A stretch of DNA of 64,000 nt from Methanobacteriota archaeon (GCA_016207515.1 JACQPN010000002.1:12350-76349); one strand, 5' to 3'; shown: positions 16,417 to 21,885, counted from the stretch's first letter. The notes: a model not told the origin generated them from the letters alone. Numbers and translations are program-made.

Positions 16417-17865
16417 GTGCCCACCGAGTGGACGGAGAAATACCGCCCAAAGACCCTTGCCGACGTGGCGGCCAACGCAAAAGCGCTCGCCGATATGAAG
16501 GCGTGGGCGGATAGCTGGGAAGCGGGCGTACCGGAGAAGCGCGCTCTCCTTCTTTCAGGCGACCCCGGGATAGGAAAGACCTCGGCCGCCCATGCGCTCG
16601 CCCACGACATGGGGTGGGGAGTGATCGAGTTGAACGCGTCCGATTCGCGTAACGAAGAGGCGATCCGGCGAGTCGCGGGCGCGGGTTCGAAGCACCGCGG
16701 GTTCGGTGCCGACGGTAGCTTCGTGAAGGACACGAACGCCGGCCGCACCCTCGTCATCCTCGACGAGGCGGACAACGTCTTCGGCCGCGAGGACCGGGGC
16801 GGCGTGAAGGCGATCGCGGAGACCATCCGCGAGACGGCGCAACCCATGATACTCATCTGCAACGACCAGTACGAGTTGCAGCGACGCGGCGCCTCCCTCG
16901 TCAACCAATGCAAGGTCGTGAAGTTCAGCCACGTGATGAAGAACGCGATCCCTCCAGTGCTTCGGAACATCCTGAAGGCCGAGGGGATGACGGCGGAACC
17001 GGAGGCGCTCATCAACATCGCGGAGCGTAGCGGCGGCGACCTTCGAAGCGCCATAAACGACCTTCAGGCGTTGACGGCGGGAAAGACCGAGTTGAAGGCC
17101 GCCGACGTCGAAGCAATCGGCTTCAGGGACGCCCGCGCATCCATCTTCGACGCCGTGCGCGAGATATTCAAGTCCGAGAAGATCGACTCCGTGCGCACGG
17201 TGCTTTTCGACCTCGACGAAACGCCCGACATGCTACTCCTCTGGCTCGACGAGAACCTTCCATTGGAATACAAGGACCCGGCGGATCTGGTCGAAGGCCT
17301 CGCGTGGCTCTCCCGCGCCGACACGTTCCTCGGGAGAACGGTGCGGACCGGGAACTACGGCCTGTGGCAGTACGCGAAGGAGACAGCGGCGTTCGGGGTC
17401 ACCGTCGCCAAACGCCGGCGCTACCCCGGCTTCACGCCCTACCGGTTCCCGACCTACCTCAAGAAGATGTCCACCGCCAGGGCGATACGGGAGACGAGAA
17501 AGTCCGCTTCGCGCAAAGTAGGCGAGGCGCTCCACGTGGGCCGGCGCGTCGCCCGAAACGACGTGTTCCCGTTCCTACGCACACTCTTCACGAATGTCCC
17601 GACGCTCGGGGGCAAGTTCGTCCACGACTTCGACGTGGAGGACCACGAGTTGGCGCTCATCATGGGGTCGGGCGTCGATTCGAACGAAGTGAAGGCGGTG
17701 CTTGAGGAAGCGAAGAAGATCAAAGCGCTTCCAACGGCGAAAGGAGCGCCTACGCCGGAGCCCGAACCCGTGGAAGAGCCCGAACCGGCCGAGGAAGCAC
17801 CCCCACAAGAAGAGGAGCCGGAAAAACCCGCCCCGAAGAGGCAGAAGAAACTCATGGAATTCTAG
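16417..17865 (+). CDS. rfcL: replication factor C large subunit
   Basis: 482 aa; AAA+ Walker A (GDPGIGKTS), Walker B (ILDEAD), acidic C-terminal tail ending KRQKKLMEF (PIP-box-like). Confidence 0.92.
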   Translation: MPTEWTEKYRPKTLADVAANAKALADMKAWADSWEAGVPEKRALLLSGDPGIGKTSAAHALAHDMGWGVIELNASDSRNEEAIRRVAGAGSKHRGFGADGSFVKDTNAGRTLVILDEADNVFGREDRGGVKAIAETIRETAQPMILICNDQYELQRRGASLVNQCKVVKFSHVMKNAIPPVLRNILKAEGMTAEPEALINIAERSGGDLRSAINDLQALTAGKTELKAADVEAIGFRDARASIFDAVREIFKSEKIDSVRTVLFDLDETPDMLLLWLDENLPLEYKDPADLVEGLAWLSRADTFLGRTVRTGNYGLWQYAKETAAFGVTVAKRRRYPGFTPYRFPTYLKKMSTARAIRETRKSASRKVGEALHVGRRVARNDVFPFLRTLFTNVPTLGGKFVHDFDVEDHELALIMGSGVDSNEVKAVLEEAKKIKALPTAKGAPTPEPEPVEEPEPAEEAPPQEEEPEKPAPKRQKKLMEF

Positions 17866-17921: not shown

Positions 17922-18107
17922 ATGGACAAACCCCAAGACCAGAGGGAGTACGTGATCTACACGTGCTACCCGATAGAAGAGTGCGGCTTCTCCGTGAGAA
18001 GCCACAACGAGGAGGAAGTGGTGGACATGGCGGTCATCCACGCCGAGAAAGGGCATAAGATGCGAGTCTCCAGGGCGGGCGTCAAAGGATTGATCAAGAA
18101 AGGGTAG
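17922..18107 (+). CDS. DUF1059-like small metal-binding protein, copy 1
   Basis: 61 aa; C..P...CGF.V.SH.EEEV......HAEKGH pattern. Confidence 0.65.
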   Translation: MDKPQDQREYVIYTCYPIEECGFSVRSHNEEEVVDMAVIHAEKGHKMRVSRAGVKGLIKKG

Positions 18108-18157
18108 GCGCCAGAGGATTCGAAGGCTTTTTTTGGGGCGAACGCTTGGGCCCACGC

Positions 18158-18340
18158 ATGGACGAGCCTACGCCAAAGAAATTCCACGTCTTCGTTTGCT
18201 TCCCGATCACCGATTGCGGCTTCACGGTGAAAAGCCACGACGAGGACGAAGTCATCGAGACGTACCTCCACCACGCCGAGAAGGTGCATGGAAAGAAGGC
18301 GTCGAAGGCGATGGCCAAGGGAATGATCAAGGTGGAGTGA
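18158..18340 (+). CDS. DUF1059-like small metal-binding protein, copy 2
   Basis: Paralog of 17922..18107 (FHVFVCFPITDCGFTVKSHDEDEVIETYLHHAEKVHG); ATG 18158 chosen (TTG 18146 possible). Confidence 0.65.
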   Translation: MDEPTPKKFHVFVCFPITDCGFTVKSHDEDEVIETYLHHAEKVHGKKASKAMAKGMIKVE

Positions 18341-18439
18341 GGCGGGCGGCGTTCGCCCCAAACGGGCGAAGACTTATCCGTCCGCGGCTAGCAGTCCTCT
18401 TTGCCGAGCCGCATGTTACAAATACGTCATACGACAAAT

Positions 18440-18760
18440 ATGTCTCATTCAATGTCTCGCCTGAAAGAGCCTCCCGCGTTGCCGAAGACGATCCGTGGGC
18501 CAGCCCCCACCCTGACGACACTACACGCGATCGAGATCATTCTCCGCAAGGCCGACAGTCGCGGGGAGGGTCCTTTGCCTTTGGCCGAGATAAAGCGACG
18601 GATGAAGGCCAAGAGCGTCAGGCATTCGACGATCCGCACGTGCGTGGACGAACTCCAGCGGCTGGGTCTCGTGCTGTACGCTCCACGAAGAGGCGTCATG
18701 TGGACCTACAACCCTGACCCCGCCTTCTGGGCGAAGAAAGGTTTCATCGAACTCCGGTGA
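18440..18760 (+). CDS. winged-helix DNA-binding protein, candidate antitoxin/regulator
   Basis: ORF 18401..18760; wHTH-like core (LAEIKRRM...HSTIRTCVDELQRLGLV); stop overlaps the next start (GTGA). Confidence 0.5.
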   Translation: MSHSMSRLKEPPALPKTIRGPAPTLTTLHAIEIILRKADSRGEGPLPLAEIKRRMKAKSVRHSTIRTCVDELQRLGLVLYAPRRGVMWTYNPDPAFWAKKGFIELR

Positions 18761-19080
18761 GCGTGCCGGGCGTGGCCGCGCGAATCGTCCGAGTCACGGT
18801 GGACTTGCGCATGATGCGTCGCGCCGGAGGACCGCAAGCGAGGGCGCTCAGGCGGCTCAAGCCGCGACTTGAGGCCACTCCATATCTTGGCGAGAGAATC
18901 CGTGACGACTTGATCCCGTCGAGATTCCGACACATGCGGCACGTCCACAGGCTTGCCTTACCGCAAGGGTGGCGGGCACTCTATTCTGTCTCAACGCAAG
19001 AAGGAAGGTCAGAGGTCGCCATTTTCTGGATCGGGTCCCACCCGGAATACGATCGTCTCCTCGGCTACAAACGAAGTTGA
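18757..19080 (+). CDS. RelE/ParE-superfamily toxin-like protein
   Basis: 107 aa; C-terminal GWRALYSVSTQEGRSEVAIFWIGSHPEYDRL follows the RelE/ParE pattern; translationally coupled to the upstream wHTH gene. Confidence 0.5.
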   Translation: MSVPGVAARIVRVTVDLRMMRRAGGPQARALRRLKPRLEATPYLGERIRDDLIPSRFRHMRHVHRLALPQGWRALYSVSTQEGRSEVAIFWIGSHPEYDRLLGYKRS

Positions 19081-20240: not shown

Positions 20241-20559
20241 CTGGTTCTGGGCACGCTGTTAAGGGCAGGTTTGCTAAATAAGAATCGAACGAAGGCCCGG
20301 TGTTTCGCGTCGCATGGGCGAAGGGAAGGGGGCGAGTCGTCACCCGTCGTCGGCCGGCGGCGGCCATGGGCAGAGGCCTTGAACGGACCCCATGTCCAGG
20401 CAGTCGGCGGGCCGTCTTGTCATCGGGACGGCGGGAAATCCTTCTCCCGACCTGTGACCTGTGAACGTTCCAATCTTCTCCGGTTGATTGTTCGCGACAA
20501 TGTATAAATAACCTGAAACCCAATAGTTGTAGTAATAATCAATTGAAAGGTTGATACTT

Positions 20560-20796
20560 ATGGACAATGGGCCGGGCACTTCAGTACCTTCGGACGACGC
20601 GGAACCCCTGAAGGAAGTCAAAGTCAAGATTCCGCTCGAATACCACGTGAAACTACACTCGATGAAGGTGCTCACGGGTCAACAGATCAGTGACACGATA
20701 ACCGACGCGCTGAGATCCTATTTCTTGAAACGCGACGGGCCGCAGAAACTTGAGCACGCGGAGCCGTCGGAGCTGCTTGACGGCGTCACTGGGTAA
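20560..20796 (+). CDS. small hypothetical protein, possible ribbon-helix-helix regulator
   Basis: ORF 20551..20796; TATA-like tgtataaataacc at ~20500; beta-strand then helix pattern (VKVKIPLEYHVKLHSMKVLTGQQISDTITDALRSYF). Confidence 0.4.
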   Translation: MDNGPGTSVPSDDAEPLKEVKVKIPLEYHVKLHSMKVLTGQQISDTITDALRSYFLKRDGPQKLEHAEPSELLDGVTG

Positions 20797-20868: not shown

Positions 20869-21885
20869 CTAGGGAGGCCCGGACTCCGGCCAAGGCGCCG
20901 AGCGGAACAGGCTCGTCTTCTGGACGCACAGATTCGCCTTGTCCCCTCCCGTCTGGTTCGCCCCGAAGTGGTGGTTCCAGAAGTTCATGCGCCCGTCGAG
21001 GGTCCGCGAACAGAAGGTGCTCTCCCCGAAGACCCCGTACTCGGCGTTCTTCACGAGGTTGTTCGTGTTCACCCTCACGCCGTCGGAGAAGAGCTCCGCC
21101 CGCACGCCGATGCGGTTCATGTAGAACGTGTTGTTGATCACGCTCGCGTTCGTCGCCCCCGAGTCGAGGAACGCTCCGATGTCGCTTCCCGACACGTTGT
21201 TGCGGTAGATGACGCTAGAGCCCGCCGATGCGAGGTGGATGCCCCATGTCCGGCTTCCGTTGATGCGGTTGGCCTCGATGACTATCGATGCGGGCGGCGG
21301 GAAACCCCCCACGCGGACACCGGTCGCATAACCGCTGATGTTGTTGCCGGAGACGATGAACGTCCCGGGCGTGCTCACGATGTCGATCCCGCGCAGGTCG
21401 ACGGTGCAGCCGGGGCACACGAACGCGTTATCGTTGATAGTGACGTTCGTCGCGTTCGCGTAGACGAGGAGCCCCTGTGTCATCGCGTTGTTGCCGACGA
21501 TCCGGTTCTCTTGGACGACGAAATGCTCGCGGGTCCCGTAGAATTGGATGGCCGCGGCGAACCGGCATCCCGTGGCCGGCGTGTCGAGCGGGTAACCGTC
21601 CGTTATCGTCCACAACGCGACGATGTACGGCAGATCCTCTGTGCCGTCACCGGCAACGATGCCGTACTTCTCCAAGCGTTCGAGCGGCGTCTTCGAGGAG
21701 AGGTCTTCGTACACGCAAATGGGCGCATGCGTCGAGATCGTCACGCCGAGGGGCGCCGCCTCCGCGTGGGGACCCGCGCCCCCGACGAGTAGTATCGTCA
21801 CAATGCCGAGAAGCGTCGGAACGGCCGTCTCTCGCACGCGATACGCATGCGTCGCGGACGGTTCAACGTTCGCGCGGCAGAGCAT
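20869..21885 (-). CDS. secreted right-handed parallel beta-helix repeat protein (NosD/pectin-lyase-fold like)
   Basis: 338 aa; N-terminal signal-like segment; repeated N-x-[IV]-x-G-N/N-N-x-x-G motifs typical of beta-helix repeats. Confidence 0.78.
   Translation of the reverse strand: MLCRANVEPSATHAYRVRETAVPTLLGIVTILLVGGAGPHAEAAPLGVTISTHAPICVYEDLSSKTPLERLEKYGIVAGDGTEDLPYIVALWTITDGYPLDTPATGCRFAAAIQFYGTREHFVVQENRIVGNNAMTQGLLVYANATNVTINDNAFVCPGCTVDLRGIDIVSTPGTFIVSGNNISGYATGVRVGGFPPPASIVIEANRINGSRTWGIHLASAGSSVIYRNNVSGSDIGAFLDSGATNASVINNTFYMNRIGVRAELFSDGVRVNTNNLVKNAEYGVFGESTFCSRTLDGRMNFWNHHFGANQTGGDKANLCVQKTSLFRSAPWPESGPP

Follow-up and report, generated by a model that had tools for sequence, protein, structure and literature searches.

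A predicted archaeal toxin-antitoxin-like module pairing a winged-helix protein with a RelE/ParE-fold protein

Two small overlapping genes within the window (the whole stretch of 64,000 nucleotides that was analysed) encode a predicted winged-helix protein and, directly downstream, a protein predicted to adopt the RelE/ParE (BECR) fold. It is very likely that they constitute a genuine co-functional module, and likely that this module is a type II toxin-antitoxin (TA)-like operon, most plausibly one in which a new winged-helix antitoxin accompanies an mRNA interferase. The module is chromosomal and consists of two genes, and its family is confined to archaea as far as it has been sampled. The features of the locus are as follows, with coordinates counted from the first nucleotide of the window:

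16417-17865: RFC large-subunit-like AAA+ gene, an archaeal housekeeping context
17922-18107 (+): DUF1059 (PF06348) ORF of 61 aa, Pfam score 26.7 bits against a gathering threshold of 21.1
18146-18340 (+): DUF1059 (PF06348) ORF of 64 aa, Pfam score 27.7 bits against the same threshold of 21.1
18418-18444 (+): operator-like tandem direct repeat, ACAAATAYGTC twice with a 16-bp period
18418-18428: repeat unit 1, ACAAATACGTC, AT-rich and about 29 nt before ATG 18452
18434-18444: repeat unit 2, ACAAATATGTC, separated from unit 1 by N5
18440-18760 (+): winged-helix ORF, ending with TGA at 18758-18760; putative antitoxin and autorepressor
18757-18760 (+): GTGA overlap of 4 nt between the stop of the first gene and the start of the second, in the context ccGGTGAgc; candidate site of translational coupling
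18757-19080 (+): toxin-like ORF with a GTG start, 107 aa
19137-20240: DRG-type GTPase gene (MMR_HSR1 and TGS domains), convergent with the module, an archaeal housekeeping context

The locus and its neighbours

[quoted passage not shown] The winged-helix ORF encodes 106 aa from ATG 18440 or 102 aa from the in-frame ATG 18452, and in its longest form begins at TTG 18401. Its true start is uncertain, both because the second copy of the conserved promoter repeat encloses ATG 18440, and because a 93%-identical homologue (P0002) was called from the codon equivalent to 18452. The toxin-like ORF could alternatively start at GTG 18763 or GTG 18772, any later start being ruled out by the first beta-strand, which occupies residues 10-15 in the AlphaFold2 (AF2) model. 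Between the window and metagenome contig L002, dN/dS was 0.16 for the winged-helix gene and 0.15 for the toxin-like gene, the latter falling to 0.08 against contig L001, and on these substitution rates both genes are under purifying selection.

The GC content dips only mildly, and the 64-kb window contains neither Rfam families nor tRNAs, hence there is no integration-site signal. The two DUF1059 genes are tandem paralogues, matching each other with E ~1e-15, and both pass the Pfam threshold, as the first-pass annotation had indicated in placing the module beside them. However, the association itself did not hold: no DUF1059 gene was present in any of 40 other module loci, and therefore these genes are incidental neighbours, outside the module. 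Two further ORFs lie beyond the DRG-type GTPase gene. The first (20551-20796, +) encodes 81 aa, VKVKIPLEYHVKLHSMKVLTGQQISDTITDALRSYF, and looks like a strand-helix-helix protein resembling the ribbon-helix-helix (RHH) fold; it matches nothing in Pfam or the PDB, and no gene close by is an obvious toxin partner. The second (20869-21885, -) encodes 338 aa with repeated 'N..I.GN' segments, suggestive of a secreted right-handed beta-helix of the NosD/PbH1-like type.

Folds and families of the two proteins

Taken alone, the toxin-like protein of the window passes no Pfam or NCBIfam threshold. Its best Pfam match was PF24732 ParE_like (E = 0.089, 13.2 bits against a cut-off of 24.4), NCBIfam returned nothing, and a single-sequence search of the PDB returned nothing meaningful, such that evidence at the level of the family was needed for a RelE/ParE assignment. 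A word-indexed search found one relative, 80% identical, and HMMER, run exhaustively over 1.84 billion representative proteins, returned 62 matches, almost all of about 100 aa; three large repetitive proteins in that list (P0006, P0034 and P0039) were discarded on inspection as repeat artefacts. The alignment of 55 toxin-family sequences (A1) displays the motif P..G..I...IP....NLfR..LP.gWRlLYT...V.i..I..HKeYDrLFGY. Among these 55 members, 11 matched PF05016 ParE_toxin (best E-value 1.9e-7), two matched YoeB_toxin and two YhaV, with some matches to HigB, while the NCBIfam models matched by members were TIGR02385 RelE_StbE and TIGR02116 Txe_YoeB. Searched against the PDB, the family profile matched Sa2YoeB of S. 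aureus (7v5y) over profile positions 1-95 with E = 2.2e-4, and E. coli RelE more weakly (E ~0.08-0.1).

The AF2 model of the toxin-like protein, built with alignment A1, has a pLDDT of 88.4 and a pTM of 0.78, and its elements follow the order beta-alpha-alpha-beta-beta-beta-alpha:

residues 10-15: beta-strand
residues 17-23: helix
residues 25-40: helix
residues 63-67: beta-strand
residues 72-81: beta-strand
residues 84-94: beta-strand
residues 95-102: helix

When this model was compared with the PDB using Foldseek, all 13 top matches were toxins of the RelE/ParE superfamily (probability 0.87-1.0, the leading ones mostly 0.95-1.0), although the E-values were modest, at 1e-3 to 1e-2, and TM-scores ranged from 0.5 to 0.66. 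These matches include HigB2, RelE (2kc8, ranked second), 6n90 (YoeB/ParE), HP0892, HigB, PfiT, Sa2YoeB, Cami1 and YafQ, and those with a known activity are nearly all mRNases, in a tally that leaves out 6n90 and PfiT. A fold search of BFVD was uninformative. The predicted structure and the family-level matches to YoeB and PF05016 together support the second gene encoding a RelE/ParE-fold (BECR) protein, and bear out what the first-pass annotation had offered as a good guess from a C-terminal motif.

Residue conservation was counted over 40 non-redundant pairs of winged-helix and toxin sequences, numbered by the toxin-like protein of the window:

R73, H95 and Y98: invariant, in 40 of 40 pairs
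D99: in 38 of 40 pairs
P54: in 38 of 40 pairs
Y76: in 38 of 40 pairs
G45: in 37 of 40 pairs
R65: Arg in 32 and Lys in 4 of 40 pairs
R100 and Y104: near-invariant

In the profile alignment with Sa2YoeB, R73 falls on the Arg of HQHRVVY and H95 on the His of SAWSH, which we take to be the catalytic Arg65 and His83 in E. coli YoeB numbering. The catalytic residues of YoeB are Glu46, Arg65, His83 and Tyr84, and those of RelE are Lys52, Lys54, Arg61, Arg81 and Tyr87. The general-base Glu of YoeB is not conserved in the toxin family, the aligned position being hydrophobic. Two idiosyncrasies were seen in the window copy: a His at position 62, shared with its closest relative (P0001), where 37 of 40 family members have Asn; and a Pro at position 96, shared with P0001 and L002, where 33 of 40 have Lys.

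The public gene calls for contig L002, in which the toxin ORF spans 2301-2624, and for the equivalent position of contig L003 both missed the toxin ORF, probably owing to a GTG start that overlaps the upstream stop. Such missed calls imply that protein databases are likely to contain proportionally fewer members of the toxin family than of the antitoxin family; the database matches number 62 for the former against 1,406 for the latter, by differing searches.

The upstream protein belongs to a larger and nameless group. A word-indexed search found three relatives, whereas a profile (A3) built from the winged-helix sequences of the module loci matched 1,406 clusters at 90% identity (E <= 1e-3), of 85-110 aa. 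None of the best-listed matches carries a Pfam domain, and their source names, where given, are 'hypothetical'; the matches with a named origin come mainly from Micrarchaeota, Woesearchaeota, Nanoarchaeota, Diapherotrites, Thermoplasmata and other archaea. Neither the window protein nor 70 homologues reached a Pfam or NCBIfam threshold, a single-sequence PDB search with the window protein returned only matches below threshold, and PADLOC gave no match for the family. The AF2 model (pLDDT 79.9) has the following elements:

residues 1-24: disordered
residues 25-40: helix
residues 48-54: helix
residues 62-74: recognition helix
residues 78-88: beta-hairpin forming the wing
residues 91-106: short, low-confidence C-terminal tail

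Foldseek matched this model to the winged-helix domains of MntR, DtxR, IdeR, CymR, LexA and GntR-like and MarR-like regulators, the match being limited to a winged-helix core of about 65 residues, with no second domain. On the modelled structure, the upstream protein is a minimal winged helix without an effector or dimerisation domain, in agreement with the earlier proposal of a wHTH rather than an RHH partner. A classical toxin-wrapping segment would be longer than the tail of about 15 residues that follows the winged helix. Membership of the DtxR/MntR, MarR, GntR, Rrf2, IclR or BlaI families was rejected, as no curated model passed and no family-specific second domain was present; likewise, the 'IclR family' label that JGI attaches to P0002 is unsupported.

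Co-occurrence, promoter repeat and proposed mechanism

Scanning one genome per GTDB species with 11 toxin-family sequences identified 30 loci with a toxin relative, all of them archaeal, in Thermoplasmatota, MAGs labelled Methanomassiliicoccales or 'Halobacteriales', Micrarchaeota, Woesearchaeota and Nitrosopumilus. By HMM scans of six-frame translations, a winged-helix homologue adjoins the toxin gene in all 30, lying upstream on the same strand in 27 and convergent with it in the three from Nitrosopumilus, where the two genes must therefore be transcribed separately. In these three the winged-helix genes stand tail-to-tail with the toxin gene (L024 4220-4522, L032 4220-4519 and L035 4187-4492, all on the minus strand). 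The pair is also present on metagenome contigs L002-L005, while contig L001 retains the last 13 winged-helix codons at its edge. Approaching from the other side, three independent look-ups from distant winged-helix proteins each found a toxin-family gene directly downstream (HMM E-values 1e-28 to 1e-30). Of the 37 distinct same-strand pairs, 15 allow an ATGA or GTGA overlap; in most of the others a possible toxin start codon can be placed no more than about 30 nt from the winged-helix stop, and in three the range examined contained no such codon.

The pairwise identities of the two families are correlated (mirror-tree r = 0.71), with none of 2000 Mantel permutations reaching as high a value, and on these sequence comparisons the winged-helix and toxin families co-diverge. 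The co-occurrence of the pair elsewhere, on which the original proposal of a regulator-toxin module depended, is thus confirmed in every archaeal locus of the scan and in the metagenome contigs examined. Several MAGs (JBAZZN01, CAZXUC01 and CAZXJU01) contain two to four copies of the module, and the genes flanking it vary between genomes. A second, more divergent pair occurs within a few kb at L008 6962-7713 (-), L017 1740-2410 (+) and L023 1000-1786 (+), and a weak, solo toxin-like fragment occurs at L034 4716-5003 (-). Searches of PLSDB, INPHARED and IMG/VR found no plasmid, phage or viral-contig homologues, hence the module gives no indication of being mobile, as many TA families typically are.

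The tandem repeat lies just upstream of the winged-helix gene start and partly overlaps it, its two units sharing an ACA-N4-(T/C)GT core. The pattern matches once in the 64-kb window and never in 100 shuffles; when the upstream DNA of 10 loci encoding proteins of 40-93% identity was aligned, nothing but this block was conserved. More broadly, of 39 upstream regions, 18 had 16 bp as their best direct-repeat offset, against an expectation of about 2.6 given the 15 offsets tried, and direct repeats surpassed shuffles (p <= 0.05) in 11 of the 39, the convergent Nitrosopumilus loci included. The Nitrosopumilus winged-helix promoters (L024, L032 and L035) keep a tandem repeat with the 16-bp spacing, TATACAATAAT twice. 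In the AT-rich DPANN loci, upstream repeats were palindromic or not significant against shuffles, and therefore the 16-bp tandem design is seen in the Thermoplasmatota-like and Nitrosopumilus branches only. The repeats of the window are direct, there being no significant inverted repeat upstream of its winged-helix gene; a sigma-70 promoter scan, using a model not appropriate for an archaeon, found nothing. From its conservation, we infer that the tandem repeat is the predicted operator of the winged-helix protein, and if the mRNA is leaderless, its TATA box may fall at unit 1.

These features suggest a simple regulatory circuit. The winged-helix protein would bind the tandem repeat, which is predicted to cover the TATA box and start site of a transcript that is probably leaderless, and by occluding the promoter would repress its own operon; such autorepression through the repeat is probable. 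The same protein would also bind and neutralise the toxin, probably via its short C-terminal tail. If the antitoxin were lost, the free toxin would enter the ribosomal A site and cleave mRNA in the manner of RelE, YoeB and HigB, using the invariant Arg73, His95 and Tyr98. On balance, the toxin-like protein is predicted to be such an mRNA interferase, rather than something else.

An alternative that we consider unlikely is that this is not a TA system at all, but an ordinary regulatory operon in which the RelE-fold protein has been domesticated as a non-toxic co-regulator or sensor, modulating DNA binding by the winged-helix protein. The lack of any sign of mobility would fit this arrangement, as would the stability with which the window and its close relatives hold the module between housekeeping genes, with the same DRG GTPase adjoining; furthermore, the window copy is substituted at two conserved positions, and the convergent order in Nitrosopumilus means that co-translation is not obligatory. 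However, the invariance of R73, H95 and Y98 across all pairs resembles an enzyme active site, and the multiple copies in several genomes, with their varying flanks, are typical of TA modules. The layout itself also matches a type II TA system: the small DNA-binding gene precedes the second gene and overlaps it, and its promoter carries a repeat.

Less probable again is that the module is a TA system whose toxin, instead of being an RNase, poisons DNA gyrase or a different topoisomerase as ParE does. PF05016 ParE_toxin was the most frequent Pfam match among family members, the sole weak match of the window protein was to ParE_like, and Thermoplasmatota generally have gyrase. However, PF05016 also covers RelE-type proteins, and an RNase is preferred because the structural neighbours whose activity is known are almost all mRNases; because the Arg, His and Tyr are invariant, the first two aligning with catalytic residues of YoeB; and because the family is present in Nitrosopumilus and DPANN, lineages that, to our knowledge, mostly lack gyrase. 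Although RelE and ParE cannot be told apart by their fold, the ParE-type gyrase-inhibitor subclusters were almost entirely without archaeal members in a 2025 census of the RelE/ParE superfamily, whereas ribosome-dependent BECR mRNases are documented in archaea, which likewise favours the RNase (PMC11980606). Finally, the suggestion that GC-rich DNA has produced the ORFs or their overlap by chance, or that they are a remnant of decay, draws on the many shadow ORFs that overlap the region in other frames and on the toxin ORF missed by gene callers in two contigs, but has a negligible probability, being refuted by dN/dS values of 0.08-0.16 in these frames, hundreds of homologues, confident fold predictions and conserved synteny.

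Returning to the reading as an mRNA interferase with a winged-helix antitoxin, there is about an even chance that the module belongs to a type II TA family that is specific to archaea and has so far escaped cataloguing, its antitoxins forming at least 1,400 clusters across Thermoplasmatota, DPANN and Nitrosopumilus. This family would combine a new minimal winged-helix repressor, acting on two 16-bp-spaced repeats over the TATA box and start site, with a new RelE/YoeB-like toxin, which would use Arg, His and Tyr without the YoeB glutamate, and act on archaeal ribosomes. As the 1,406 antitoxin clusters are annotated as hypothetical, naming them would annotate a recurrent part of archaeal dark matter, especially in DPANN and Thermoplasmatota. 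Moreover, the conserved tandem repeat over a probable TATA box and leaderless start would provide a compact, testable model of TA autoregulation by archaeal-type repression.

Comparison with known systems

The closest solved structure is found among the YefM-YoeB/Axe-Txe systems (PF06769/TIGR02116). Sa2YoeB (7v5y) was the best profile match and has the same fold, the catalytic Arg and His of YoeB coincide in the alignment with an Arg and a His that are invariant in the toxin family, and both systems place the antitoxin gene ahead of the toxin gene and overlapping it. However, the antitoxin described here is a winged helix rather than a YefM/Phd fold, the position of the YoeB catalytic Glu is hydrophobic, and the toxin family has an extra conserved C-terminal H-K-x-Y-D-R-L-F-G-Y helix. 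The window protein also falls below the YoeB model thresholds, and its family is archaeal, whereas YoeB/Txe is reported to be absent from archaea (PMC11980606).

The RelBE systems, both E. coli RelE and the aRelE/aRelB of Pyrococcus and Methanocaldococcus, share a small BECR-fold toxin and a bicistronic, antitoxin-first organisation with an operator, putative in the module, at the promoter. RelB, however, is an RHH protein with a long C-terminal toxin-wrapping segment, in place of which the module has a winged helix with a tail of about 15 residues, and the P. horikoshii aRelE (1WMI) was not among the PDB matches of the toxin-family profile. HigBA and gp49/HTH resemble the module in joining a RelE-fold toxin to an antitoxin of the HTH class, rather than RHH or Phd, and HigB2 and HigB were among the top structural matches. 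Yet HigA-type antitoxins are Xre/Cro-type HTH dimers, with the toxin gene usually first, while the partner here is a winged helix of the DtxR/MarR/GntR class, and is itself encoded first. The type IV AbiEi-AbiEii and the ArsR-COG3832 systems do employ a winged-helix or ArsR-like regulator as antitoxin or autorepressor, but with unrelated toxins, a DUF1814 nucleotidyltransferase and a START/Aha1-like protein, respectively (PMC3985639, PMC2701414).

The 2009 census of type II TA systems listed RHH, Xre-HTH, Phd/StbD, AbrB and MJ1172-RHH as partners of RelE, and ArsR-COG3832 as the only stable pair with a non-Xre HTH, hence the winged-helix/RelE combination is not in that census (PMC2701414). Nor does the 2025 census of the RelE/ParE superfamily ever mention a winged helix (PMC11980606), such that neither provides a winged-helix partner for RelE-fold toxins, and no description of such a pair was found in the full-text literature, mostly that outside subscription journals. 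The module stands outside YefM-YoeB, RelBE, HigBA and gp49-HTH, as its antitoxin fold differs from theirs and no curated model passed. The combinatorial nature of type II TA modules is established, and a new pairing of toxin and antitoxin is accordingly no conceptual surprise.
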